In this document: positions 5,657 through 19,536 of the stretch, piece by piece
How positions within the stretch are numbered: position 1 is the stretch's first letter
Layout: every line of letters starts with the position of its first letter
NCBI GenBank assembly: GCA_028819255.1
Contig: JAPPMB010000147.1
Span: forward strand, 80,031 to 144,030
Origin: Bryobacterales bacterium
GTDB lineage: Bacteria > Acidobacteriota > Terriglobia > Bryobacterales > UBA6623
Length of the DNA stretch: 64,000 bases
Direction of reading: 5' to 3'
Notes under the pieces: model-generated
Database searches by the model: none
What the model saw: the letters and a program-made list of their open reading frames with translations, nothing else
Told to the model about the DNA's origin: nothing
Translations under genes and position numbers: made by a program

Positions 5657-6790
5657 ATGCGCGTCCTGATACCCAATCTGGGTTCGACCTCGCTGAAGTA
5701 CCGGCTGCTGCGGTTCCCGGGCGAGCAGCAGCTCGCCGCCGGCCGGATGGAGCGCATCGGCCGCCCGGGGGGCGACGCAGCCAGTTACTCGGATGCGATC
5801 GGATCGGTGCTCCGCGAGGTCGGAGAGATCCAAGCGGTCGGCTTCAAGGCCGTGCATGCCGGGCCCTTCTACCGGGGGACGTTCCGGATCGACGACGGCC
5901 TGCTGGCCGCCCTCGAGGAGTACGCGCCGGCGGCGCCCCTGCACAACGGGATCTACCTGGAGGGAATCCGCGAGTTCCGCGCCCTGTGTCCGGGTCTGCC
6001 GCTCGTGGCGGTCATGGAGACGGGCTTTCACAGCACCGTTCCGGATCACGCCAGCACCTACGGGATCCCTGCGGAGTGGCGTCGCAGGCACGGCATCCGT
6101 CGCTACGGATTCCACGGGGCCTCCCACCGCTCGATCGGCAGGCGCGTGCCCGCGCTCCTGGGCGCGGAGGAGTCCGGCCTGCGGACGATATCGTGCCACC
6201 TGGGGGGGAGCTCGTCGATCTGCGCGATCCGGAACGGCCGTTCGTGCGACGTCTCGATGGGATTCTCGCCGCAGACCGGCCTCGAGAACGCGACCCGCCA
6301 CGGAGAGCTGGATCCCTTCGCGGTGCTGTTCCTGATGGACCGGCTCGGAATGAGCGCCGCGGCCATGCGCGACACGCTCGTCAGGGACGGCGGGCTGGCC
6401 GGACTCTCCGGGATTGCCGGCGGCGACGTGCGGGACATTGAGGCCGCCGCCCGCGAGGGCAGCGAGGCGGCGGAACTGGCGCTGGCGGTGTTCGCATACC
6501 AGGCGAAGAAGACGATCGGGGCCTTCGCGGCCGCCATGGGCGGCGCGGACGCGCTGGCCTTCACCGGGGGGATCGGCGAGAACTCGGCCTCGCTCCGGCA
6601 AAGGATCTGCGACGGGCTCCAGTTCCTCGGGATCGAGCTGGACCCCGAAAGGAACGCCGCCGCCGTGCCGGACTGCAGCATCGGCCGCCGCGGGAGCCGT
6701 GTCGCCTGCCTCGTGCTCGCCGCGCAGGAGGAGCTGGTGGTCGGCCGCGAGGTCTACCGACTTCTGGGCGGCGGCCCGCCCTCAGGGTAG
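5657..6790 (+). CDS. ackA: acetate/propionate-family kinase
   Basis: The ATG at 5657 gives MRVLIPNLGSTSLKYRLL. The motifs RRYGFHGASHRS and AFTGGIGENS are typical of acetate kinase. Confidence 0.85.
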   Translation: MRVLIPNLGSTSLKYRLLRFPGEQQLAAGRMERIGRPGGDAASYSDAIGSVLREVGEIQAVGFKAVHAGPFYRGTFRIDDGLLAALEEYAPAAPLHNGIYLEGIREFRALCPGLPLVAVMETGFHSTVPDHASTYGIPAEWRRRHGIRRYGFHGASHRSIGRRVPALLGAEESGLRTISCHLGGSSSICAIRNGRSCDVSMGFSPQTGLENATRHGELDPFAVLFLMDRLGMSAAAMRDTLVRDGGLAGLSGIAGGDVRDIEAAAREGSEAAELALAVFAYQAKKTIGAFAAAMGGADALAFTGGIGENSASLRQRICDGLQFLGIELDPERNAAAVPDCSIGRRGSRVACLVLAAQEELVVGREVYRLLGGGPPSG

Positions 6791-8464
6791 CCAGAGAATC
6801 CCCTTCGCCAGGGCGATCAGGGCGATCACGACCAGTGCGGCCACGGCGAGGCCGTTGAGGTCAATGCGGAAGCGGCGGTAGAACGCCGCGAATCCCTGGG
6901 AGAGCCGCAGATCGAAGAGGTGGACGAACAGGAGCGCGTTTCCGTCGGTGCGGTCAGCCATCTCCCTGCCGTCCGCCTCGTTCCAGCGCGAGGCCCGGCC
7001 CAGCCTCTCGTAGAACCGCCGGGTCCGTTCCCGAGGCTCCTCCGGCGTCAGCAGGCTTGCCGCGGCCAGGGCCAGGAAGCCGACGAGCAGGGCGATTCCG
7101 AAATTGTCGGCCTCCCACTGCAGCAGCACGCCGTGCTCCCGGTAGGTGAGCCAGAAGAACAGGCCCGAGGACGCGAGCAGGCTGGCGAGCGCCCCCCACC
7201 GGTTCGACCTTCTCCACGAGATCGCGCCGAACATGCTGATCCCCATGAACGCGGCGATCGTCTCGGTGAACAGGAATGCCTGCAGGACGCTGCCGACGTA
7301 CAGCCCGAAGACGACTCCGAGCAGGGTCATGGCCACGCCGGCGAACCGGCCCGACCACAGGTAGTGACGGTCGCTGCGGTCTCTCGCCACGTAGCGGCGA
7401 TAGAGATTCTGCGTGAACAGCGCGGCGCTGTCGACCATGAAGGCGGAGCCCGTCGACATGTTGGCCGCAAGGACGCAGGCGATCATCAACCCCAGCCCCC
7501 CCGGAAACAGCAGTTCCCGCGTCGCGTACCCGAACGCATCCTCGGGATCGGCGAACGCGGCCTCTCCGCGCTGCACGAGCAATGTCGCCACGATGATGCC
7601 GACCAGAGCCCATCCGATGGTGCAGAAGCGCTTGATGAAGTTGCCGTACGCCATGCCGATCCGGCAGGATCGCTCGTCTCTGCCGGTGCCCACGCTTGCT
7701 AGGATGTGCGGCTGAGCGACAATCCCGATCAGGCCGTTCAGCGTGAGCATGACGATCGTGAACACGCCGACATCGCCCGGAGTGACCATCGAGAGCATGC
7801 CCGGCTCGAGCGTGTCGCGGATGCCGGTGAATCCGCCGGTCTCGCGCAGGCCGATCGGGATCAGAAGGAAGCTCAGCGCAACGATGAAGATGCTTTGGAC
7901 GAAGTCCGTGTAGGCGGCGGACACCAGGCCGCCCACGAAGCTGTACAGCAGAAACGTGGCGGTCATTGCAAGAACGACCGCGTTCGCGGACACCGCCTCG
8001 CCCGAAGCGACGCTGACCAGCTTGCCGGCCCCCTTGAGCATCGCTCCCATGTTGAAGGTGAAGTACGCCAGGGCGAAGAGCGTGTAGACCGCGCCCATCC
8101 AGCTGCCGTATCTGTCTTCGTAGACCTCCCCCGTGGTCGTCCGTCGAAACCGGCGGAACAGCGGGGCGAGAATCCAGTAGAACGGAGTGATGAAGAGGTT
8201 CTTCCACTGGTACCAGATGCCGGCGTAGCCGGACTGGTAGACCTTTCCCGCCAGCGACACGGGCATTTCGGCATGAGTGCCCACGCCGAGGGCCTGCCCG
8301 ATGACAAGCCACACGCTGAAGCTGCGATTGCCGAGGAAGTAGTCGGCGGTCTTCCTAACTCTCCGAGCCGCGTACAGCCCCACGGCGACCATCGCCACGA
8401 AATAGAGCGCGATGACCGCCCAATCGACCGACTGCAAGCTGGTTTCCATTTGCGAGCCGCCCAT
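6782..8464 (-). CDS. sodium:solute symporter family transporter
   Basis: The start MGGSQMETSLQSVDWAVIALYFVAMVAVGLYAARRVRKTADYFLGNRSF is followed by many hydrophobic helices. The upstream 367 codons of track ORF 6782..9568 are Arg/Pro/Gly junk and overlap the next symporter gene. Confidence 0.85.
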   Translation of the reverse strand: MGGSQMETSLQSVDWAVIALYFVAMVAVGLYAARRVRKTADYFLGNRSFSVWLVIGQALGVGTHAEMPVSLAGKVYQSGYAGIWYQWKNLFITPFYWILAPLFRRFRRTTTGEVYEDRYGSWMGAVYTLFALAYFTFNMGAMLKGAGKLVSVASGEAVSANAVVLAMTATFLLYSFVGGLVSAAYTDFVQSIFIVALSFLLIPIGLRETGGFTGIRDTLEPGMLSMVTPGDVGVFTIVMLTLNGLIGIVAQPHILASVGTGRDERSCRIGMAYGNFIKRFCTIGWALVGIIVATLLVQRGEAAFADPEDAFGYATRELLFPGGLGLMIACVLAANMSTGSAFMVDSAALFTQNLYRRYVARDRSDRHYLWSGRFAGVAMTLLGVVFGLYVGSVLQAFLFTETIAAFMGISMFGAISWRRSNRWGALASLLASSGLFFWLTYREHGVLLQWEADNFGIALLVGFLALAAASLLTPEEPRERTRRFYERLGRASRWNEADGREMADRTDGNALLFVHLFDLRLSQGFAAFYRRFRIDLNGLAVAALVVIALIALAKGILWLP

Positions 8465-8535
8465 TATACGAGCGGGGCGGTAGGCCGGGCCGACCCAGTG
8501 GGCACGGGACGGGTGTCGGGCGGGAGGTGCGGGCT

Positions 8536-9939
8536 TCAGCCTCCGGGACTGCCGCCCGGCGCGTCGATCCGGGACCGCAGAAGGCCCCGGGCGACGAAGA
8601 CCGCCGCACTGGCCGCAATGCCGGCGGGAACGGGCCCGAGCCAGCCGCCCAGCGCGTCCGGCACGAGGAGGGCAAGCCCGGCGGCCGCCAGCGAGAAGCC
8701 CATGGCTGCGAGGGCCGTAGCCTGTCCCGGCCGCCTCCAGTACAGTCCCGCCAGCAACGGCACGAACAGGGTGATCGTCAGCAGACTGTAGAAGAAGCCG
8801 AGCGCGGACAGGATCGACCGGAACCACCTTGCCAGAAGGATGCCCGCGAGGCCTGCGACCACAGCCGACAGTCGTGTCCGGGCGAGCAGCGCCGCGTCCC
8901 GCAGCCGCCCGCCGGACAGCGGCTCGATCACGTCCCGCGCCGCGGAGGTTGTGATCATGAAGAGCACGGCGTCGGCTGAGCTGATCTCCGCCGAGAAGAC
9001 CGCGGCGAGCATCAGGGCGCCAAGCCAGGTCGGAGCGGCCTCGCCGAGCAGCCGGATCAGCGCCAGGCCCGGATCGTCCAGGTCCGGGAAGTGGACGCGT
9101 GCGATCATCCCGAGCAGCACGGGAAGAAACGCGAATCCCAGCAGGGCAGCTCCCTGCAGCCCGACGCCTGTCCGGACGGCGGACTCGTCTCTTGCGCCGA
9201 ACAGTTTCTGGACAAGGCCGGGGGAGACCATGAAGGCAGGTGCCAGCATCAGGACCATTTGCGCGATCGCTGCGGATCCGGTCGCGTCGCGCGGCACTGC
9301 CTGGGCATTCGGTGCCGCTGCCGCCAGCCCGGCCCAGCCGCCGCCGGCCCGAAGCATCCAAGGCACCGCGATTGCGAATCCGGCCACCTTCACCACGACC
9401 TGCAGTGAATTGACCCACGCGGCCGACCGAAGGCCGCCCATCACGAAGTAGGCCGTTGCGACGCATCCGCCCAGCACAAGGCCCCATTGCTCGGGCACTC
9501 CGGCCACGACGCGCAACACCAGCCCGACCGCGATGATCTGGCCGGCTAGGATCGCGGGTGCGCCACAAAGCAGGATGACGGCGGCGACCAGACGCGTCGT
9601 CCGTCCGTAGCGCGCTTCAAGGAGATCGCCCACCGTGTACAGGCTGAGGCGGCTGGCGACACGGTGGAGACGGGGCCCGACCGCAAACGCAAGCAGCAGC
9701 GAGCCGATGCCGGCCGAGCCCACCCACCACCACGCAGCCAGGCCGTCCGTGTATCCGAACCCCGCCGCTCCCACGGTGCTCCCCGCCCCGAGATTCGCCG
9801 CCAGGAAGGTTGCGAAGACCAGGGACGGGGACAGGTTCCGGCCGGCGACGAAGAAATCCTCGGCTCGGCGGACGGAACGCGATGCGTACGCCCCGACGAG
9901 CAGCAGAAGAAGGCAGTACGCAATCAGGAAGACGAGCAT
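8536..9939 (-). CDS. sodium:solute symporter family transporter
   Basis: The N-terminus MLVFLIAYCLLLLLVGAYASRSVRRAEDFFVAGRNLSP is typical of the SSS family. The protein is polytopic throughout. Confidence 0.85.
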   Translation of the reverse strand: MLVFLIAYCLLLLLVGAYASRSVRRAEDFFVAGRNLSPSLVFATFLAANLGAGSTVGAAGFGYTDGLAAWWWVGSAGIGSLLLAFAVGPRLHRVASRLSLYTVGDLLEARYGRTTRLVAAVILLCGAPAILAGQIIAVGLVLRVVAGVPEQWGLVLGGCVATAYFVMGGLRSAAWVNSLQVVVKVAGFAIAVPWMLRAGGGWAGLAAAAPNAQAVPRDATGSAAIAQMVLMLAPAFMVSPGLVQKLFGARDESAVRTGVGLQGAALLGFAFLPVLLGMIARVHFPDLDDPGLALIRLLGEAAPTWLGALMLAAVFSAEISSADAVLFMITTSAARDVIEPLSGGRLRDAALLARTRLSAVVAGLAGILLARWFRSILSALGFFYSLLTITLFVPLLAGLYWRRPGQATALAAMGFSLAAAGLALLVPDALGGWLGPVPAGIAASAAVFVARGLLRSRIDAPGGSPGG

Positions 9940-10619
9940 GCCGAGGTTCAGGGACTACGGGATCTTGATTGTAGAGGTGTGCTGGCGGAGTTCCTGCGGG
10001 CCATGACCGCGCGAGCCCGTGCCAGCCCCTCCGCCCCTCCAACACTCCCGCGCCAAAGCCGCGAGAGAGTACATGTCCGCCCGTACGATTGCGATCCGCT
10101 CGAGGTGAGGGTTGCCGCGAACTCCACGTACCAAGAGAGCCTGACGTTCAACATTGAAGGCAATGGGTGCCCGCCATCGCCCGAATCCTGCACGATTCGA
10201 TCAAGAACGTGCTCTCGCCAACTCGAATAATGCATGGCGGCCCAAGCCAAGCGTCAGGCTTTCAAGTGCGCCCTCTCCACGTCCTTCGCCAGTGGCTCCC
10301 CCTCCTTCGGTCGCCTGAACTGACAGGAGAGTTGTCGCCAGAACCCCGTTGACACCGGTGTCTCGATGCCTCGCCGCAGTCGCATGCGTTTCAGACCGGA
10401 GGCAAACCGCCGGACCGACGGAACAGAGTTGGACGAGTCCATAGCTGTGCTCCCTTCCGAGCGATGGAGGAATGCGTCGGCAGCTAGGCTTCGGCCGCTT
10501 CGCAGCCGCAATCGGGCTACCCTGCACTCGCCGGGCCTCGCACGCTGCTACCGCAGCTCCCGCATCTCCGGAGTCTGCGAGGCGCCGCGGGCGGGCGGCT
10601 GGTTGCGTCTGCTACGATC

Positions 10620-10805
10620 AGGAGGCTCCGGGGTGCCCACTAGGGCCTAACAGGGAAGTCCGGTGGAAATCCGGCACGGTCCCGCCACTGTGAGCGGCGA
10701 GTCGCATCGACATGCCAGTGAGGTGATTGCCTTGCGAAGGCCGGTGCGACGAAGGCGAGGAGACTTCGCTTGAGCCGTTAGTCAGGAGACCTGCCCCGGT
10801 GCAGT
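10620..10805 (+). promoter_or_regulatory. cobalamin (B12) riboswitch aptamer
   Basis: It carries the conserved core AACAGGGAAGTCCGGTGGAAATCCGGCACGGTCCCGCCACTGTGA and the 3' element GTCAGGAGACCTGCC. The closing helix is CCGGGG (10628) with CCCCGG (10794). It lies upstream of a TonB-receptor remnant and btuFCD-like genes. Confidence 0.85.
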
Positions 10806-11163
10806 GTGCGCGCACGACTCCGCGAGGTACGGATGAGCGGCTTGAATGTTGGCTATGGCGGCCCGCCGGGAAGAGGCCCCGGTCGGGTCGTCTTCCATCC
10901 CACCGCTGACTCCACAAGTGGATTGCATCCGATTCCCGCATCGGGATCGACCTCAGGTGGAGTGCGCAGCATCCAATAGCCCGCGGAGACGGGCACGGAG
11001 GCAGCGTGAGCAGGAAATCCAGGCCCTGCAGAAGTCGGCGGGGCGTTCGACCGCACGGCTCCCGCTCAGCGGATTCAGCTTGGCGATTCGCCAGCAGGCT
11101 CCCTTGGACGGCCGCAGGTCGAGCGACGGACAGCTCTGCGTCGAAACGCACGGAGGCAACACG

Positions 11164-11881
11164 ATGCGACGCCGGTCTGGGCTCGGCTTGTGCGGTGTTT
11201 GCGGTTCCCGTGTTTCTGATCACGGCCGTCGTCGCGTCGCAGTTGCAGGCGGGCGGCCTGCTCGGGAGGGTCCTCGACCCGCATGGCGCCGCTGTTGTGA
11301 ACGCGCGGCTGCGCCTCTTCGACCGGGACGGCGGTACGGTTCGCAACGCCCGGAGCCGAATGGACGGGACATACGCGTTCCCCAACCTCCTTCCGGGCGA
11401 ATACCTCCTGGAGGGCGCAAAGCCCGCCGCGTCCCTGGCTGGATCGCGCGCCCTCAAAGTGGGCGGGCAGACACGACTCGACCTGGATCTAGCTGTCTCG
11501 GCATCCACCGTAGAGATTGTCGTCACTGCCTCCAGCACACCCGCTGCGCAGGCTGAGATTGCCAAAGCACTCGACGCCGCGCACGACGAGGAGATTGCCC
11601 TGCGCGACGAGTACTCGCTGGCGGAGGCCCTCCGCAGCACGCCAGGCGTGCGCGTACAGCAGTTGCGGGGTCCCGGGAGCCTCGCGACCATCCAGACTCG
11701 CGGACTGCGCACATACGACACGGCCTTGTATCAGGACCTGCTGCTCTTTGACACCGACCGGGTCGAGTTCATGCGCGGCTCCGGCTCCTCGCTCTACGGA
11801 TCCCACGCGCTCGGCGGAGCAATACGCGCAGGGGTACGTATTCTTGGGTCCGTACCCCAGCCACTTGTGGAGATCGCATGA
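11164..11881 (+). pseudogene. TonB-dependent receptor remnant (frameshifted N-terminus, CarboxypepD_reg plus partial plug, no beta-barrel)
   Basis: GGAGG followed by the ATG at 11164 opens MRRRSGLGLCGV in one frame. The signal-peptide remainder and receptor domains (FAVPVFLITAVVASQLQAGGLLGRVLDPHGAAVVNARLRLFD..., TRGLR..., RVEFMRGSGSSLYGSHALGG) lie in the next frame (track ORF 11006..11881). That ORF stops right after the plug and overlaps the next gene. Confidence 0.7.
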
Positions 11882-12858
11882 GCTCCGCATCACGAATCGT
11901 TCTTGCCTTGCAGATGGCCGCATGCGCGCTGCTGCTCGCCGCCGCCTTTCGGTTCGTTGGAGGAGCGCCCGCGGCACTTTCCCGGGAGCCCGAAGCCCCA
12001 TCGACCGTGACCGGCGACGCCTTCCCACGTGTCGTCCGGGACGCGCACGGCGACACACTGAGGCTGGAACAGCCGCCCGCGAGACTCGGCTCACAGGCCT
12101 TGTCCACAGACGAGTTCCTGTTCTCCATCGTCCCCGCCGCCCGCATCGTCATCGCGAGTCCGTATGCCGCTGATCCCCGCTACAGCTTCGTCGCCGACCT
12201 TGCCGGAGCGACGGACCCGGCGAAAGCGACGGATCCGGAGTCGATCGTGCTCCGCAGTCCCGAGGTGTTGTTCGTTTCCCACACGGCGCGCGCCGAGTAC
12301 GTCGAGCAGGTCCGAGCATCCGGGATACCTGTGTTCCGCATGACCACGGTCTTCGAGCAGCTGGAGCAGATCGCATCGGCATTGCGCGTGACCGGATCCA
12401 TCGTTGGCGAAGACGAAGCCGCCGAGCGCGAGATAAGGCGTTTCCTAGAACGGATTCGCGCCGCCAAGGAGCTTGCCGCTCCGGGAGACAAGCCTGCCCG
12501 GATCCTTGCCTTCTCGAATCTTGCCCATACGTTTGGAGCGGGTTCCCTGTTCGATCGAATCGTCACGGATCTCGGAGCCGTCAACGTTGCCGCCGAACAG
12601 GGAGTCGGCCCGTACGGCTCAATCACCAGCGAGCAGGTCGCGGCGTGGAATCCGGACTGGATCGTGGCGGGCGTGGAGCCCGGCCGTGCGACGACAGAGC
12701 GCGACCGCCTCCGTGCTGATCCCGGAATCGCTGTGACGCATGCCGGGCGCGAGGGCCAGATCCTGCTCATCGAGAATCGCGCCTACCTGTCCATGTCCCA
12801 CCATGCCGTGGTCGTCATGGAGATGCTGGCTGCGGCTCTTCACGGAGGGAAGCGGTGA
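11878..12858 (+). CDS. btuF: ABC transporter periplasmic substrate-binding protein (BtuF/FhuD-type)
   Basis: It has a signal peptide (MSSASRIVLALQMAACALLLAAA) and a type-2 periplasmic binding-protein layout. It lies in a 4-nt-overlap chain with the permease and ATPase genes, downstream of a cobalamin riboswitch. Confidence 0.7.
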   Translation: MSSASRIVLALQMAACALLLAAAFRFVGGAPAALSREPEAPSTVTGDAFPRVVRDAHGDTLRLEQPPARLGSQALSTDEFLFSIVPAARIVIASPYAADPRYSFVADLAGATDPAKATDPESIVLRSPEVLFVSHTARAEYVEQVRASGIPVFRMTTVFEQLEQIASALRVTGSIVGEDEAAEREIRRFLERIRAAKELAAPGDKPARILAFSNLAHTFGAGSLFDRIVTDLGAVNVAAEQGVGPYGSITSEQVAAWNPDWIVAGVEPGRATTERDRLRADPGIAVTHAGREGQILLIENRAYLSMSHHAVVVMEMLAAALHGGKR

Positions 12859-13934
12859 GTCGGGCCCTCGATTCCCTGGCGGCGTTTGCCCGATCGCGAG
12901 CGGCGCCCCTGTACTTTCTTTCCGCTGCGGCGGCTCTGGCGGTTGCAGCCGTCGCGGGCGTCGCCCTCGGCAGCACCGAGATCGGATGGGAGTCCGTGCT
13001 CAGGACGGTCTTCTCGAAGTTCCTGCCCGAGGGATGGATCGACCTTGGCGGAGTCACCGAGGCCGAGCGGGTGATCATCTGGCAGATCCGAATGCCCCGC
13101 GTCATCGTGGGCGGACTGGCAGGCTGCGGGCTGGCGGTCGCGGGGACGCAGGTGCAGGCAGTGTTCCGGAATCCGCTGGCCGAGCCGAGTGTGATCGGAT
13201 CCAGCCAGGGGGCGGCGCTCGGGGCCGTCACTGCGTTCGTCACCGAACTGGCGACGCGTTCGGCGCTCTGGCTGCCGCTGTTCGCCTTCAGCGGAGCGCT
13301 GATTGCACTGTTCACCGTCTATGCCGTGGCAAGCAGGGCCGGGCGGACGCCGGTTGCGACGCTGCTGCTGGCGGGCATCGCTCTCGGCTCACTGATCTCC
13401 GCCGCCACCTCGATGCTGATCTCCCTGAACTTCGTGAACTGGCAGGTAGCCTCGGAGATCGTTTTCTGGATGATGGGCGGCCTCGACGGCCGCACTTGGA
13501 CTCACGTGTGGATTTCCGCGCCCCTGGTCGCGATCGGCGCTTCGGTTGCGTTCTGGTACGTCCGGGATCTCGACCTGATGCTTCTAGGGGAGGAGGCCTC
13601 GGCCTCGCTCGGGGTCGAGGTCGAGCAGGTCAAGCGGTCGGTCCTCGCAACGGCCGCGCTGCTGACCGGCACCGCGGTCGCCGTGAGCGGAGTGATCGGC
13701 TTCGTGGGCCTGGTCGTGCCTCATGTCATTCGGATCCTGCTGGGACCGGCGCATAGAGCGCTGCTTCCCGCGAGCATTCTGTCCGGAGCAGCGTTCCTGA
13801 TCGGTTGCGACATCCTTGCCCGCACCGTCTACGCGCCCACCGAGCTGAGGCTCGGCGTCGTGACTGCTCTGTTCGGAGCGCCGCTGTTCCTTTATCTGCT
13901 CCGTCGCAAGCGCATGGAGGTCGCCGTCCTTTGA
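12855..13934 (+). CDS. btuC: FecCD/BtuC-family ABC permease
   Basis: Family pattern is present: IIWQIRMPRVIVGGLAGCGLAVAGTQVQAVFRNPLAEPSVIGSSQGAALGA ... GVIGFVGLVVPHVIR. About ten hydrophobic helices. Confidence 0.85.
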   Translation: MSRALDSLAAFARSRAAPLYFLSAAAALAVAAVAGVALGSTEIGWESVLRTVFSKFLPEGWIDLGGVTEAERVIIWQIRMPRVIVGGLAGCGLAVAGTQVQAVFRNPLAEPSVIGSSQGAALGAVTAFVTELATRSALWLPLFAFSGALIALFTVYAVASRAGRTPVATLLLAGIALGSLISAATSMLISLNFVNWQVASEIVFWMMGGLDGRTWTHVWISAPLVAIGASVAFWYVRDLDLMLLGEEASASLGVEVEQVKRSVLATAALLTGTAVAVSGVIGFVGLVVPHVIRILLGPAHRALLPASILSGAAFLIGCDILARTVYAPTELRLGVVTALFGAPLFLYLLRRKRMEVAVL

Positions 13935-13957
13935 CGATCAGGCTGGATCGCGCCGGC

Positions 13958-14770
13958 ATGCGGATTCGGCGGAACTGGCTGGTGCGGGATGTCTCGATGG
14001 TAGTCCGCCCGAACCGGATCACCGCCCTCGTCGGCCCCAACGGATCCGGAAAATCGACGGTGCTGCGGCTTCTGGCAGGCCTGTGGCAGCCTTCCGAGGG
14101 CCGCGTACTGGTCGATGGTTCGGACATGGCGAGTCTCGGTCGGCGGGACCTTGCCCGTCAAGTCGCATTCGTTCCGCAGAATCCGCGCATAGACGTGCCG
14201 TTCACGGTCAGGCACGTCGTCAGCATGGGCCGCCATCCGCATCTCGGCAGGTTCGAATCCGCCGGGCCGCGCGATCTGGAGGTTGTCGAGTCGGCGCTCG
14301 CCCGAGTCGACGTCCTGCACCTTGCCGAGCGCCGCGTCAACGAGCTGTCCGGGGGCGAATTCCAGCGGGTCGTCGTCGCGCGCAGCCTGGCGACCGAAGC
14401 CGATGTGATCCTGCTTGACGAGCCGACATCCAACCTCGATCTGGACCATTCCCTGGAGACTCTCGAACTGCTGCGCCGGCTGGCTGAGGACGGCAAGGCA
14501 GTCGCCGCAGCCTTGCATGACCTGAATGCTGTGGCTCGCTGGGCGGATCACGCGACGCTGATGCATCGTGGTCGCCTACGTGCGCACGGGCCCGTCGGCC
14601 AGGTGCTTGCCGACGAGCAGCTCGTGCCGGTCTTCGATGTCGACATCGAGCGCCTGCAGACCTCGCACGGGGTGCCCGACCTGGTGTTCCATCGTCGAAT
14701 CCATCGTTCCGGGGAATCGTCGCGGGCCGAGCGAGGCCGTGATGCCGACGAGAACCGCTTGCCCGGGTAG
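13958..14770 (+). CDS. btuD: ABC transporter ATP-binding protein (BtuD/FepC-type)
   Basis: Walker A GPNGSGKST, signature LSGGEFQRV and Walker B ILLDEPTSNLD are present. A TTG at 13931 that overlaps the permease stop is an alternative start. Confidence 0.88.
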   Translation: MRIRRNWLVRDVSMVVRPNRITALVGPNGSGKSTVLRLLAGLWQPSEGRVLVDGSDMASLGRRDLARQVAFVPQNPRIDVPFTVRHVVSMGRHPHLGRFESAGPRDLEVVESALARVDVLHLAERRVNELSGGEFQRVVVARSLATEADVILLDEPTSNLDLDHSLETLELLRRLAEDGKAVAAALHDLNAVARWADHATLMHRGRLRAHGPVGQVLADEQLVPVFDVDIERLQTSHGVPDLVFHRRIHRSGESSRAERGRDADENRLPG

Positions 14771-15105
14771 CTCATCGGACCCTGTTGTCGAGACGGCAGG
14801 CGATCCCGTTCAGCGGCTCGACGATCACCCGATGCTCCGGTGAGAGCCTGCCGATTTCCTCATGACGGGTGTCCGGATCGTGCGGTGTGGCTCTCCGTGC
14901 ATCCCGTGACAGTGCCAAGCCCACGCCGGGAGAGCCACTGGCCGGTGGCTGAGATTGCGCCACCCGCTCTTCGCAGGTCAAACGGTCCTAGACACCCGGA
15001 CTCTGCCAACTTGCCGCGCATGGTCTTGTCGCCCTACCTCCACGCTGCACGCACAGGGCCACAGGTTCCGTCTCGGCCCGTTGGGGCAATCGAGGCGGCG
15101 AGGCC

Positions 15106-15576
15106 CTACCGGCGCGCCGCATCGCCGACCGACGACAGGTTCTTCAGAACTCCCATGACGAACGGAATGCAGACGAGCGGCAGGTAGAGGTCGGATGCCC
15201 GGTCCTGGATGGCAGCGCCGGTTTCCCAACGGCCCAAGGCGGCCTCGGCGATGGCGGCGGCCTCGGCGAAAGCGGCCCTGGTCATTCCGTGTTGTTCCCG
15301 GACCCCACGGACTTCAGCCGGGGTCAGCACTCCGAGGTGGCGGCACACGAATGCGTGACGCAGCCGCTCGCCGACATGGTCAATGTACTCGGTCCCACAG
15401 TCCATGCAGCGTCGGACGGGCAGTTCGACCCGCAGTGTTGCCGCAGAATCGCCTAACCCGTAGATGAATTCGTCGGTATGCCGGAACGTGTGGATCGACC
15501 TGCTGTCGCAGAGCGGACAAGTATGGGCTTCCACCGCAGCGCGAACGGAGAATCGAGTCTTGTCGTCTGGTTCCAT
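15106..15576 (-). CDS. MqsA/YgiT-like zinc-ribbon plus XRE-HTH protein (antitoxin-like), with hydrophobic C-terminal tail
   Basis: GAGGA sits 9 nt before the ATG at 15576. The protein has two Cys pairs (CPLCDS ... CMDCGT) followed by an HTH (LTPAEVRGVREQHGMTRAAFAEAAAIAEAALGRWETG). The extra tail is LYLPLVCIPFVMGVL. Confidence 0.7.
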   Translation of the reverse strand: MEPDDKTRFSVRAAVEAHTCPLCDSRSIHTFRHTDEFIYGLGDSAATLRVELPVRRCMDCGTEYIDHVGERLRHAFVCRHLGVLTPAEVRGVREQHGMTRAAFAEAAAIAEAALGRWETGAAIQDRASDLYLPLVCIPFVMGVLKNLSSVGDAARR

Positions 15577-15911
15577 GTTCCGTAGTCCTCGGAGCAATGA
15601 AAGGTGCGCCCGAATGCCTTCTTCGTCCCACTTACCGGCTTCGCGCACAGTTCGGGCAATCTCGATCCGAGACCGACATTGATGGACTGGCCGTTCTTGC
15701 CCGGCGGCTACTTAGACTCGATTATTGTCACCTCGCAGCCAACCTCCGGTCTCGCGGCCATGAACTCCCGTGCCGTCGCGCTTGTGCGGCAGGGAGCAAG
15801 CACCCCGTCGGGGCTGGGAACCTGGTCGGCCGCCACCGCTGGGGCCGCGCTGCCGAGAAAGCCTCATCCCGAGTTCTCGGGTGGAGCGAGCCCCGATGGA
15901 CGCAGTCGGCT

Positions 15912-17501
15912 TCAGACGCCCCACACGTCTATGCGCACCTCTCCCAATGGCTCCTGCCGATGAAAGAGGCGCTGGGACCATGTCCTGTTCGGTCGGAGTT
16001 CGAAGACCACCAGATGCCCCTCGTCCGCACCGGCGACGTCCATGTACTCCCCGGTCTGCCGCACGCCCTGGGCGATGACGGCTTCCAGGCTGCGTCCGGG
16101 CCGGAGCACCTTGCACTCGATCACGTACCGTGCCTCACCGCCCCCGGGCGGGCGCCAGACGACGAGCAGGTCCGTCCGCGGCCGGCCGACGCCGAATTCG
16201 CGCTCGATGCGGCCGCCGCTGTTGACCAGCCGCTGGAGGAAGGCCTGCAGGATCAGCTGCGGGCCGGCCTCGCGGTAGCCGAACCGCTCCACCCAGTGCT
16301 CGGAATGGTCGCGGAAGAAGCCTTGGAAGTGCTGCATCAGGCGCCTGAGGTCGAGAGACCCATCGAACCTGAGGTAGGAGCCTGGCCGGATGAATCCCGC
16401 CAGCCGGCTCTGCAGCACCGAGGTGAGCTGCCTGGGGACCACCTCGCGGTAGATGGGGTTCGCGATTCGGACGGGGTCGTCCGGGGCGATCAGTCCCAGA
16501 TCGCGGACGTACTCCATGTCCTCGTCGGACCAGTCGGGTTCGAGGCTTCCCTCCAGCAGGGGTTCGATGACGCGCCTGACGCGGTCCTCGGAGAGTCTGG
16601 CGGCGAGCTGGTCGAGGTGGGTGACCCTTCCGACGATGAGCGTCTCCCTGGCCCGGTCGATGGATTCTGCCCCGATCGGCCGGCTGCGGTCCCGTCCCGC
16701 CTTGTCTTCGAAGCAGGCCTCGAGGGCCAAGGCGTTGACCAGCCAAGGCTGGCCGCGAGTGAGCTCCCAGATCCTCTCCACCGCGCCCGCTTCGAACTCC
16801 TGGCCGGTCTCGGCAGTGTGCTGGCCCAGCAGCGAGCGCACCTCGTCCTGCGTGAAGTCTCCCAGCCGCAGGGACTTGGCCCTGATGTTGAAGGCGCTCC
16901 CCCCGGTGACGCTGGCGCCGAGCGAACTCGAATAGATGCGGTAGTCGCGCACATCACGCACGCCGCACAGGATCACGCTCTGCGGGAAGCCGTCAGGCCG
17001 CTCGTCATAGCCGGCGCGGAGCTGCCGCAGCACGGAGATCAGCGAGTCGCCTTCCAGGCTGTCGATTTCGTCGATCAGCAACACCAGCGGCTTCTCTCGA
17101 GCGCTCGCCCAGCGGGCCAGGGTCTCGTTAAGCGCACCGTGGCCCCCGTGCTCCTCCAGCACGTTAAGCCGGACATCCCTGACGAATGTGTCCTGCAGCA
17201 TCTTCTCCGCACGTCTTGCGATCTGGCCCAGAAGCACTCGCATCGCCTCTGGCACGTCCTCACGCGCTGTCTGGCCGACCTCGAAGTTCGCGTACACGCA
17301 GCCGTACTTGCCTGTGGCGTTGAGCGTGTCGGCGAGAGCCTTGAGCGTCGAGGTCTTGCCGGTCTGGCGGGGGGCATGGAGGACAAAGTACTTTCTCCTC
17401 CGGATCAAATGCAGAATTTCGTCCCGATCCACGCGCTCCAACGGAGGGATGCAGTAGTGGATGCTGGGATCGACCGGGCCCTCGGTGTTGAAGTCTTTCA
17501 T
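15912..17501 (-). CDS. AAA-like ATPase fused to a C-terminal PD-(D/E)XK-type nuclease fold
   Basis: Walker A is HAPRQTGKTS and Walker B is LVLLIDEIDSL. The C-terminus GRPRTDLLVVW...ARYVIECKV fits the D...E.K nuclease signature. The ATG at 17501 (MKDFNTEGP) lies inside track ORF 15912..17780. Confidence 0.7.
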   Translation of the reverse strand: MKDFNTEGPVDPSIHYCIPPLERVDRDEILHLIRRRKYFVLHAPRQTGKTSTLKALADTLNATGKYGCVYANFEVGQTAREDVPEAMRVLLGQIARRAEKMLQDTFVRDVRLNVLEEHGGHGALNETLARWASAREKPLVLLIDEIDSLEGDSLISVLRQLRAGYDERPDGFPQSVILCGVRDVRDYRIYSSSLGASVTGGSAFNIRAKSLRLGDFTQDEVRSLLGQHTAETGQEFEAGAVERIWELTRGQPWLVNALALEACFEDKAGRDRSRPIGAESIDRARETLIVGRVTHLDQLAARLSEDRVRRVIEPLLEGSLEPDWSDEDMEYVRDLGLIAPDDPVRIANPIYREVVPRQLTSVLQSRLAGFIRPGSYLRFDGSLDLRRLMQHFQGFFRDHSEHWVERFGYREAGPQLILQAFLQRLVNSGGRIEREFGVGRPRTDLLVVWRPPGGGEARYVIECKVLRPGRSLEAVIAQGVRQTGEYMDVAGADEGHLVVFELRPNRTWSQRLFHRQEPLGEVRIDVWGV

Positions 17502-17905
17502 GCCCACCCGGAGCATTGCGTGCGGTTCATTTAAGCATTGTCCACTCTGCGATTCGTCCCGCCACCCGGGCGGGCGGTTGCCGATCCGGGAAAACCAGGC
17601 ATCCCGATCCCGTCTCTGGCTCGCATGCCGCGCCGGAGGCGCAAGGCCGCTGCCGATTCGCAACTTCGCGAACAGTTCCTTGCGGGATCCATGGGCACAG
17701 CGGCCGGTCAGGCTGCTCCCGCACACGGTCCCGCCGCCACCCGGCCCCGGACTCCGGGCCGGATCCCTGCTTGGAGACATCTCGGAGCCCAGTGCTCAGC
17801 AAGTCCCTGCACCTGGCACGTTGGCACAGCATTCAATGCGACTCGGAGCCGGTTCCCCAAGCCGGGACCGGGAAGCGGCGGCTTGGAGCCGAAGGTGAGG
17901 GCAAG

Positions 17906-17983
17906 TGGTGTCCCCAGCGGGATTCGAACCCGCGTTGCCGCCGTGAAAGGGCGGTGTCCTAGGCCGGGCTAGACGATGGGGAC
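17906..17983 (-). tRNA. tRNA-Glu(UUC): tRNA-Glu (anticodon UUC), CCA encoded
   Basis: The minus strand reads GTCCCCATCGTCTAGCCCGGCCTAGGACACCGCCCTTTCACGGCGGCAACGCGGGTTCGAATCCCGCTGGGGACACCA. All four cloverleaf stems pair, and the anticodon loop is CTTTCAC. Confidence 0.95.
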
Positions 17984-18069
17984 GCGAGTTGCGGGTGCCC
18001 TAAGGGCCAACTAAGCTGATTCTAGCACGCGGACCCCGACCTGCTGGCCGGAAGCCCAAGACGTGATGA

Positions 18070-19536
18070 CTACCGCATCGCGAGCTCGGATTCTTCAACG
18101 ACGATGGGCCGGGAAGCGATCAGATCCCCCGCGCTCAGGCCGGCTCCCACAACGGCTTCCGTATCGCTGACGGACACGAGTTCCACGGGACGTCTCACGA
18201 ACTCGTCTCCGGATCCCTTCACCCACACGGCCGGCTGGCCGTCGGAGTGATCCAGGCTGGCTCGGGGAACCACGAGCACATTCTCCAGCTCCTCGATGAT
18301 GACGTCGCCCGAAGCCGACAGATCAGGCTGGATGCGCTCGTCGCTCGCAAGGATCTCGATTTCCACGGGAACCTGCTTGATCCACTCGCCGCGCGATCCC
18401 GAGGATCCCGGTGGGCCGCGGCGGCCCCCGCCGCCCCCGCCGCCAGACACGGCCATCGCGCCGACGGAGCTGACGCGTCCCTCGAACACGACGTCCGGAT
18501 AGGCGTCGAGCTGGACCTTGACCGGAACTCCTAGCCGAACCAGCTGGCTGTCCGCCTGGTTCAGGTTGGCGAACACAGCCATGTTCGACAGATCGACCAC
18601 CCGCATGAAGAAGGCTCCGCCATAGATCTGGTCTCCGGGTGAAGCCTGTTGGAAGTTCCCCCGCTGGAACATCGTCTCGATCACGACCAGACCGCCCACA
18701 GGCGTCCGAATCCGCATCTTCTCAAGGTCGGAACTCGTCCGGTCCATGCGCTTCTGGTCCTGCTCGACCGTCAGGTCCAGGCTCCGCGATTCCGCCTCGT
18801 TGGCAAGCTCCTGCAGTTCCACCTCTCTCCTGAGCTGGTCCGTGGAGGCTCGGCCCTCCTGTGCCATGAGATCGAAGATCTCGGCCTGAATCGCGGACCT
18901 CACCTCGGCCGTCTGCAGGTCCAGCTCGGACTTCTCCGCCTCGGACTTCGTTGTCCTGAAGTCCTGCCGAAGCGTCTCGGTGGCGATCAGGATCTCCGCC
19001 TTCCGGGTGCCCGCCTCGGCTCTCGTCTGGGCCAGCATGGAGGAATACGTGTCGAGCTTGTCCTGCGTGTCCTTGGACTCGAACTCTGCGACCACTTCCC
19101 CCGCCTGGACGACGGTGCCCGCTTCGGCAAGCGTCTGGATCGTCAGCGAAGATCCGCCTCCGCGGTCCCGTCCGCCGCGCATGCGGGGAGCGCGGATCAT
19201 TGCGAAATTGGTCGCACCGACCGTGCCGCCGATCCGAATCGAACGCCGGAAGTCCCGCTTCTCGGCCACGACCGTTGCGACCGCCGATGGCGCGGCCACT
19301 GCCTGGTCGACGCCCGAAGACCGGGTGGACTGGAACACGCCAAGACCCACGGCCGCTCCTAGGACGACCAAAACGCCGACACCCCAAGGCGGCAGGCCGG
19401 GTTTTTCCGCCTGCGGGTCGGGAACGACTTGCGGACCGGGTCCCGGTCCCGGCTCGGCTTGAGGCGCCGGTTGCGCGGACGCAAAGAACCGAGGCACCGT
19501 CAGCCACGAAAGGGGTGTATGTGCAGCATCTTGCAT
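18070..19536 (-). CDS. HlyD/MacA-family membrane fusion protein (periplasmic adaptor)
   Basis: It has an N-terminal anchor, a lipoyl-like hairpin (GTVVQAGEVVAEFESKD), a long coiled coil and a beta-barrel part (IRTPVGGLVVIE). A Gly/Arg-rich insert is present (GGGGGGRRGPPGSSGSRG). Confidence 0.8.
   Translation of the reverse strand: MQDAAHTPLSWLTVPRFFASAQPAPQAEPGPGPGPQVVPDPQAEKPGLPPWGVGVLVVLGAAVGLGVFQSTRSSGVDQAVAAPSAVATVVAEKRDFRRSIRIGGTVGATNFAMIRAPRMRGGRDRGGGSSLTIQTLAEAGTVVQAGEVVAEFESKDTQDKLDTYSSMLAQTRAEAGTRKAEILIATETLRQDFRTTKSEAEKSELDLQTAEVRSAIQAEIFDLMAQEGRASTDQLRREVELQELANEAESRSLDLTVEQDQKRMDRTSSDLEKMRIRTPVGGLVVIETMFQRGNFQQASPGDQIYGGAFFMRVVDLSNMAVFANLNQADSQLVRLGVPVKVQLDAYPDVVFEGRVSSVGAMAVSGGGGGGGRRGPPGSSGSRGEWIKQVPVEIEILASDERIQPDLSASGDVIIEELENVLVVPRASLDHSDGQPAVWVKGSGDEFVRRPVELVSVSDTEAVVGAGLSAGDLIASRPIVVEESELAMR

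Follow-up and report, generated by a model that had tools for sequence, protein, structure and literature searches.

The closest described relative of the gene presented here is DUF1703, a family that combines an AAA-ATPase_like domain (PF09820) with a PDDEXK_9 domain (PF08011). DUF1703 was defined by remote homology (Knizewski 2007, PMC1913061) and is present as 25 recombining paralogues of unknown function in Cardinium cCpun (Siozios 2019, PMC6387759). Single-gene fusions of an ATPase to a PD-(D/E)XK domain are also listed as untested defence candidates, namely PDC-S01 and PDC-S27 (PMC12988326; bioRxiv 10.1101/2024.01.29.577857), with PDC-S01 being among the most abundant candidates and moving between bacteria and archaea (PMC12988326). 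Here we describe an intact gene encoding a single ATPase–nuclease fusion protein, located at positions 15912–17501 of a 64,000-nucleotide (nt) stretch of DNA from a Bryobacterales bacterium (contig JAPPMB010000147.1 of assembly GCA_028819255.1), the whole of which is hereafter called the window. The PADLOC candidate PDC-S01 is its closest defence-catalogue entry. It is one member of a very large accessory family whose genes pass between lineages, multiply in tandem, and need no partner gene. The best explanation of its product is an AAA+ ATPase of the ORC/Cdc6–archaeal ATPase–AAA_35 type, joined to a PDDEXK_9-related nuclease by a helical middle part that probably includes a winged helix. With moderate confidence, we propose that this protein would act as an autonomous ATP-dependent DNA nuclease in genetic conflict, either through restriction of phage or plasmid DNA or through abortive infection.

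The open reading frame (ORF) translates into 529 amino acids (aa) with no internal stop. The longest ORF variant reaches 17780; homologue starts instead match MKDF/MRxFNTEGP, and because a start equivalent to MKDFNTEGP is found in all 40 homologues aligned, 17501 is the correct start. Contig JAPPEZ010000041.1 of the Bryobacterales metagenome-assembled genome (MAG) GCA_028824065.1 matches the window with 99.6% identity over 15.7 kb, and a protein 100% identical to that of the window (P0001, likewise from a Bryobacterales MAG) is labelled 'ATP-binding protein'. No second family copy was found within the window by tblastn, and promoter and terminator scans around the gene found nothing. A 645-aa antisense ORF (15597–17534, plus strand) covers the entire gene; we regard this ORF as a spurious product of the 66% G+C content, and not as a gene.

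Comparison with DUF1703 was based on the 40 aligned family members that also served for all conservation counts given here, which are 32–86% identical to the window protein. Members of both families are single polypeptides of ~520–550 aa with the same order of parts, in which a conserved N-terminal segment is followed by a P-loop ATPase, then by a helical region, and finally by a PD-(D/E)XK domain at the C-terminus. The nuclease motifs of the family profile align residue by residue with those of a true AAA-ATPase_like + PDDEXK_9 protein (GR.D…hhE.K…Q..Y), 16 of the 40 relatives match AAA-ATPase_like and 14 match PDDEXK_9, and both families show multi-copy expansion and recombination-like mosaicism. 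A true DUF1703 gene was also found 7 kb from a family member (locus L099). The window protein itself, however, is unlike DUF1703, scoring 12.7 bits on PF09820 (E 0.11, cut-off 26.1) with no match to PF08011 (cut-off 25.5 bits), whereas a true DUF1703 member (L043:19169-20809) scores 220.7 bits on PF09820. Its ATPase is nearer to AAA_35, AAA_22, and ATPase_2 than to the AAA-ATPase_like domain of DUF1703.

PDC-S01 likewise consists of one gene in which an AAA+ ATPase is fused to a PD-(D/E)XK-superfamily domain, but its proteins are ~390–420 aa long and are built from other Pfam families, shown directly by a gene in locus L003 to be AAA_14 (PF13173) and DUF4143 (PF13635). Against the PDC-S01 model, the window protein aligned over residues 23–61 only (39 residues, E 0.022) and fell outside the family, while eight of the 40 relatives match it weakly (best E 4.7e-5). 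We also considered whether PDC-S01 and DUF1703 are one and the same, and rejected this, as PDC-S01 is AAA_14 + DUF4143 and the true DUF1703 protein has no PADLOC match. Because the window protein falls short of the profile thresholds of both DUF1703 and PDC-S01, it is placed, on profile scores, as a separate branch of the single-polypeptide AAA+ ATPase + PD-(D/E)XK kind, belonging to neither.

An earlier sequence-only reading of the window had described the product as an AAA-like ATPase and a nuclease in a single polypeptide, and this description was borne out by Pfam AAA matches, by folds resembling 2qen and Cdc6, and by motif conservation. The motifs it had picked out (Walker A, Walker B, and RTDLLVVW…YVIECKV) are all present in the translation. 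Together with a conserved GQPWLVN motif, the two Walker motifs lie in the ATPase domain, where PRQTGKTS and LVLLIDE correspond to the AAA+ P-loop NTPase patterns GxxxxGK[ST] and hhhhDE. G48, K49, and D144 are retained in 40/40 members and E145 in 35/40. The arginine-rich stretch that had been noted in the N-terminal half, a putative sensor or arginine finger, is real and conserved, with Q160 and R162 in 40/40 members, R168 in 35/40, and R182 in 36/40. Residues 35–260 match generic AAA families in Pfam, and AAA_22, AAA_16, and NPHP3_N exceed their cut-offs (NPHP3_N with 30.9 bits versus 24.8). Of the families to which the earlier reading had pointed by name, PDDEXK_9 gave no match, and AAA_35 (PF14516) fell just below its gathering cut-off (26.9 bits versus 27, E 2.7e-6), although it was matched by 34/40 relatives scanned singly (best E 2.1e-15). 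ATPase_2 (PF01637) is similarly matched by 30/40 relatives, with the window protein under the cut-off (22.1 bits versus 33.2).

The full-length AlphaFold model has a predicted local distance difference test score (pLDDT) of 74.7 overall and of 80–96 across residues 51–160. In Foldseek searches this model matched the archaeal Walker-type ATPase 2qen (E 9e-8) and Cdc6 (1fnn, E 1e-6), as well as the clamp loader RFC, RuvB, and TnsC (probability ≥0.97), consistent with an AAA+ core fold with a helical lid. Whole-chain structural alignments to Cdc6/Orc1 cover 411–429 columns. On the strength of these matches, the N-terminal two-thirds of the protein is modelled as an AAA+ module with its lid, probably followed by a winged helix, which would be contained in residues ~271–380. 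Within the ATPase domain lies a variable helical insert (residues ~90–135), which coincides with the family-wide entropy peak at residues 91–135. The archaeal ATPase/ORC-Cdc6 clade thus provides the best structural match to the N-terminal two-thirds (2qen, 1fnn), but replication initiators neither carry a nuclease domain nor occur as accessory genes in multiple copies. Avs-like STAND (signal transduction ATPases with numerous domains) proteins are similar in that a single chain couples a P-loop NTPase with an effector of the PD-(D/E)XK type, and some relatives weakly match nSTAND_NTPase5 or iSTAND, in addition to the NPHP3_N match of the window protein. Unlike STAND/Avs proteins, however, the window protein has no TPR, WD40, or LRR repeat in Pfam, carries its nuclease at the C-terminus, and is only 529 aa long.

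The sequence-only reading had also assigned a PD-(D/E)XK domain to the C-terminus, and this assignment holds, given the motif conservation, the PDDEXK_9 matches of 14/40 relatives (best E 4.7e-7), and the topology of the model. One member, P0166, exceeds the PDDEXK_9 cut-off with 26.5 bits. The predicted catalytic set comprises E435, D444, E462, and K464, plus Q482xxxY486 (nt 16044–16058), and is well conserved among members (D444 and E462 in 35/40 each, K464 in 33/40, Q482 in 30/40, and Y486 in 34/40), while about five of the 40, all divergent, lack catalytic residues. The last 152 residues, modelled on their own with good confidence (pLDDT 87, predicted template modelling score 0.85), show the alpha-beta-beta-beta-alpha-beta order of restriction endonuclease-like folds. 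D444 begins strand 2 (residues 445–449), E462 and K464 fall within strand 3 (457–466), and the flanking helices (412–426 and 472–490, the latter bearing Q482xxxY486) are followed by a strand at 494–501. The D…(D/E)xK signature is accordingly found on strands 2 and 3 of the core, as in the PD-(D/E)XK superfamily. The top Foldseek matches of this domain are weak and mostly PD-(D/E)XK fold nucleases (AF1548, R2 endonuclease, MspJI, EcoO109I, AspBHI, XisH, Mus81, CidB, EndoMS, and DdmD), with 1y88 matched at a probability of 0.91 and a template modelling score of 0.35. Searches of solved-structure sequences with the whole protein or the C-terminal profile returned nothing usable. We consider the predicted nuclease well supported for the family and, through motif and model, for the window protein.

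The family is both very large and widespread. At least 8,000 clusters at 90% identity match the window protein, the best 120 of them with 60%–86% identity, and an exhaustive search found 962 representatives of 50%-identity clusters matching at E<=1e-30, with most full-length representatives being ~490–550 aa long and matching end to end. A scan of one genome per species yielded at least 556 confirmed relatives. The best 80 of these are 51%–67% identical to the window protein and span at least 10 phylum-level groups, including Acidobacteriota (Bryobacterales, Vicinamibacterales, and Blastocatellia), Latescibacterota, Spirochaetia, Chloroflexota, Gamma- and Alphaproteobacteria, Binatia, Desulfobacterales, Longimicrobiales, Candidatus Palauibacter (going by record names), Armatimonadota, and the archaeon Methanothrix. 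Identities of 51%–67% across domains argue for horizontal transfer. Archaeal copies in two Methanotrichaceae/Methanothrix MAGs (L052 and L073) are 55%–56% identical to the bacterial protein, which, judging from sequence identity, points to recent transfer between domains. No homologue was found in phage records.

Tandem arrays of copies on the same strand are common in the family. The locus L002 (the same locus as L005) holds six copies at 6621–18398, L006 and L008 hold four each, and at least 12 copies are found inside 275 kb of one 4.4-Mb Bryobacterales contig. Genes of the L002 array are 83%–90% identical in DNA, and the ~670-nt C-rich spacers between them are 89% identical; two of the copies were trimmed by 10 codons by gene callers. 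As the spacers have diverged about as much as the genes, their likeness is explained by duplication of the unit, and a functional non-coding element in the spacers was rejected. Positive selection among the array paralogues was likewise considered and is not seen overall (ratio of non-synonymous to synonymous substitution rates, dN/dS, of 0.32–0.42). Differences between L002 paralogues cluster in residues 61–140 and 361–380, the same regions that are most variable across the family. The hallmark motifs FNTEGP…HYCIPPL and GQPWLVN are conserved family-wide. A 993-aa protein, P0121, consists of two near-complete family units head to tail, which either fusion of a tandem pair or read-through could explain.

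Expansion of this kind could also be a trait of symbionts. A role in symbiosis has been speculated for the DUF1703 expansion in Cardinium (PMC6387759), and the paralogue expansion with signs of mosaicism described here resembles that of Cardinium cCpun, with its 25 DUF1703 paralogues (PMC6387759). Related assemblies derive from sponge metagenomes, going by record names alone, and ankyrin and WD40 genes are found among the neighbours of family members. A nuclease family expanded in host-associated bacteria to act on the host or on competitors nonetheless seems highly improbable, as wastewater, sediment, and free-living lineages (Competibacter, Amarolinea, Methanothrix, and Parabeggiatoa) have members too, and the N-terminus, when read by eye, has no signal-peptide-like hydrophobic segment and is instead a conserved soluble motif.

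Copies at ~40% identity or less were additionally found in 15 plasmid records, eight of which are Pseudanabaena plasmids; two Pseudanabaena strains typically carry a single copy on each plasmid. In four of the five Pseudanabaena plasmid loci inspected (L094 5995–8493, L097 4995–7505, L093, and L095), a tyrosine recombinase gene is adjacent to the family gene or no more than 1.5 kb away, and in two of the loci it starts on the same strand only 13 nt past the family gene, an arrangement suggestive of a two-gene module in this clade. ParA or ParA/ParB genes lie 2–3 kb off in two plasmid loci. These observations raise an alternative in which the family serves mobile elements or replicons by helping to maintain plasmids or other elements, to initiate replication, or to recombine specific sites, with the tyrosine recombinase as one conceivable partner. 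The resemblance of the fold to initiators (Cdc6/Orc1) and TnsC would fit such a role, as would the frequency of transposases near chromosomal copies. However, no recombinase recurs beside the gene in close relatives (34 genomes), the window has no integrase, terminal repeats, or duplicated tRNA end, and arrays of six same-strand chromosomal copies are ill-suited to the maintenance of one replicon each. The fifth Pseudanabaena copy, moreover, is surrounded by Cas6, an ImmA/IrrE protein, a ubiquitin-like system, and a toxin gene. Taken over the whole family, service to mobile elements therefore appears rather unlikely, although within the Pseudanabaena clade the gene may have such a role.

The genomic surroundings of family members were sampled as the two nearest non-family ORFs per side in 34 genomes (135 proteins). 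The gene caller, which was based on G+C content at third codon positions (GC3), missed some low-GC3 genes and was complemented by filling gaps with long ORFs; the sample includes some spurious ORFs, and foreign genes are possibly still under-sampled. No family recurs among the 135 neighbours, with PhyH (five) and then ankyrin (three) being the commonest, and thus there is no obligatory partner gene, in agreement with the stand-alone character that had been suggested for the protein. Neighbours matching defence models include methylases, a restriction enzyme, reverse transcriptases, Cas1, and two PDC-S01 genes. Among the eight annotated loci with called genes, five are near defence or mobile genes and three stand alone among housekeeping genes, counts for which there was no control set. 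In L003, three family copies are found amid AbiEii, BrxC/PglY-like, AAA_15/21 + DUF4276, and MmeI-type methylase genes and directly downstream of a PDC-S01 gene (6431–7594; AAA_14 + DUF4143, E 9e-91), so that two different ATPase–nuclease families are clustered together. The six-copy array of L002 adjoins IS110 and GmrSD_N, the copies of L004 lie amid AAA_15/21 ATPases, L099 has reverse transcriptases and a transposase in addition to its DUF1703 gene, and L100 is surrounded by DruA, transposases, and Fic.

Architecture and mixed genomic context are thus compatible with the defence effector that the first reading had put forward, although assignment to a catalogued system failed, as neither PADLOC nor NCBIfam gave a significant match to the window protein. 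Further results also weigh against a role in genetic conflict. No experimental report of phage or plasmid protection by the family was found in the literature. The C-terminal domain matched no solved structure at E<1e-3 in Foldseek (best 8.6e-3), and Pfam searches with the last 150 residues or the C-terminal 152 aa of the window protein gave no match. Array paralogues, at the dN/dS values given above, evolve under relaxed purifying selection. Defence models match few of the 135 neighbours, again with no control set, and the neighbours of the window gene are transport and housekeeping genes, with no defence genes among them. A second paralogue in GCA_028824065.1, 83% identical and on another contig, stands alone near transporters, recR, and dnaX, and the surroundings of L101 are likewise housekeeping. 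Finally, no cognate methylase or antitoxin was found that would keep the nuclease from cutting the DNA of its own cell.

The housekeeping surroundings of three of the eight annotated loci, one of them beside recR and dnaX, would also suit a host enzyme of DNA repair or recombination, that is, a housekeeping ATP-dependent structure-specific nuclease that merely resembles a conflict gene. PD-(D/E)XK domains bearing QxxxY occur in repair nucleases too (the RecB/Cas4-type motif set), and conservation is high, at 60%–86% identity among the top 120 matches. Close relatives, however, lack the gene at the syntenic locus, copy number varies from this absence up to at least 12 in 275 kb of one genome, the phyletic pattern is patchy and crosses domains, and catalytic residues have been lost in about five of 40 members. 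Such features are a poor fit to core repair, which we accordingly regard as quite unlikely.

Synteny with two relatives (L089 and L091) defines the immediate setting of the window gene (Table 1). Homology of both to the window by blastn ends exactly at 17905, the 3' end of a tRNA-Glu gene, and restarts at 9938; therefore, the ~8 kb in between, including the ATPase–nuclease gene, are a variable segment missing from these relatives. Outside of it, the window and both relatives share the order CutA1, glycosyltransferase, ABC exporter, M28 peptidase, membrane-fusion protein, and tRNA-Glu, and the two relatives' versions of the adaptor-protein gene next to the tRNA share 85% and 76% identity with the window's. 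Beyond the tRNA, both relatives continue directly with an SSF transporter gene. The tRNA neighbour that had been noted from the sequence thus marks the edge of a variable segment, but not a classical integration site. We found no integrase, no duplicated tRNA 3' end, no meaningful flanking or terminal repeats, and no G+C anomaly in the segment, and a classical tRNA-integrated island was rejected on these grounds.

Table 1. Features of the window, with positions in nt and residues of the 529-aa protein
Feature	Position	Strand	Basis
ATPase–winged-helix–nuclease coding sequence, complete	15912..17501	-	529 aa plus stop; translation, homologue starts
AAA+ P-loop ATPase domain, residues ~26-270	16692..17426	-	Pfam, Foldseek, conservation
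Walker A HAPRQTGKTS, residues 42-51	17349-17378	-	Translation check
Walker B LVLLIDEIDSL, residues 139-149	17055-17087	-	Translation check
Arginine-rich conserved stretch ISVLRQLRAGYDERPDGFPQSVILCGVRDVRDYR, residues 155-188	16938..17039	-	40-member alignment
Helical lid and probable winged helix, residues ~271-380	16362..16691	-	Model secondary structure, Cdc6/Orc1 alignments
PD-(D/E)XK-type nuclease domain, residues ~385-529	15915..16349	-	Motif conservation, domain model, PDDEXK_9 matches of relatives
RTDLLVVW…YVIECKV, residues 442-465	16107-16178	-	Translation check
tRNA-Glu(TTC)	17906..17983	-	ARAGORN, Rfam; 404 nt upstream of the gene, same strand
Variable segment, ~8 kb	9939..17905	.	blastn of L089 and L091 versus window
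Cobalamin riboswitch, full-length	10614-10812	+	98 bits, E 3e-24
BtuF/FecCD/ABC-ATPase (BtuF/C/D-like) uptake operon, B12-type	11878-14770	+	Downstream of riboswitch
Zinc-ribbon + XRE-type helix-turn-helix gene	15106..15648	-	Two CxxC pairs; weak helix-turn-helix matches

The variable segment also carries a cobalamin riboswitch upstream of a B12-type uptake operon (Table 1). A minus-strand ORF (10618–11721) that overlaps the riboswitch has no Pfam match and is probably spurious. Opposite window positions ~10500–11824, the near-identical MAG contig L001 carries an intact gene for an 803-aa TonB-dependent receptor (15684–18827), ~1.8 kb of which is missing from the window while the remainder is 86%–92% identical; the receptor gene of the window, judged from this alignment, seems to be truncated, or the region seems to come from another strain or assembly. 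The regulator resembling one of a toxin–antitoxin system that had been noted beside the ATPase–nuclease gene corresponds to the zinc-ribbon/helix-turn-helix gene, and the label is plausible but weak (Pfam HTH_31 with E 2.6e-4, below cut-off; HigA-2 antitoxin with E 0.015). In GCA_028824065.1 this gene was predicted to encode 99 aa, in another assembly 156 aa, and its two CxxC pairs are present only in the longer reading frame. It is found beside no other family member among ~100 family loci, and with the adjacency being confined to this locus, a toxin–antitoxin pair formed with the ATPase–nuclease gene was rejected and the neighbour is regarded as incidental.

Returning to the proposed ATP-dependent nuclease of genetic conflict, ATP-dependent oligomerisation, a DNA substrate, regions of specificity, and a defence role are what we infer from the features described above. 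ATP binding and hydrolysis at the Walker A and B motifs would drive the protein to assemble or to be remodelled on DNA, which the putative winged-helix region would grip. Assembly or remodelling may then license the Mg-dependent C-terminal nuclease (E435, D444, E462, and K464), leading to cleavage of nucleic acid. The insert at residues ~90–135 and the linker at residues ~361–385, the most variable parts, are likely determinants of specificity.

A bolder version of this proposal, which we put forward only tentatively, is that the family could be a distinct and large group of autonomous nucleases missed by defence catalogues, whose arrays would constitute a repertoire of immune receptors with differing specificities, amplified in sponge-associated or otherwise dense communities and exchanged between bacteria and archaea. 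What makes the family stand out is its size, the fact that defence catalogues lack it, and the striking amplification of its copies in tandem. Few candidate immune genes of prokaryotes are as abundant as single-gene fusions of an ATPase to a nuclease, and with 962 clusters at 50% identity the family is as large as the PDC candidates while being invisible to PADLOC and NCBIfam naming models. If the gene does serve in defence, immunity would be undercounted in sponge symbionts, wastewater consortia, and cyanobacterial plasmids, and the tandem arrays would offer a natural series of variants for the mapping of specificity. If it does not, the family would be a warning against taking every ATPase–nuclease fusion as a component of prokaryotic immunity.

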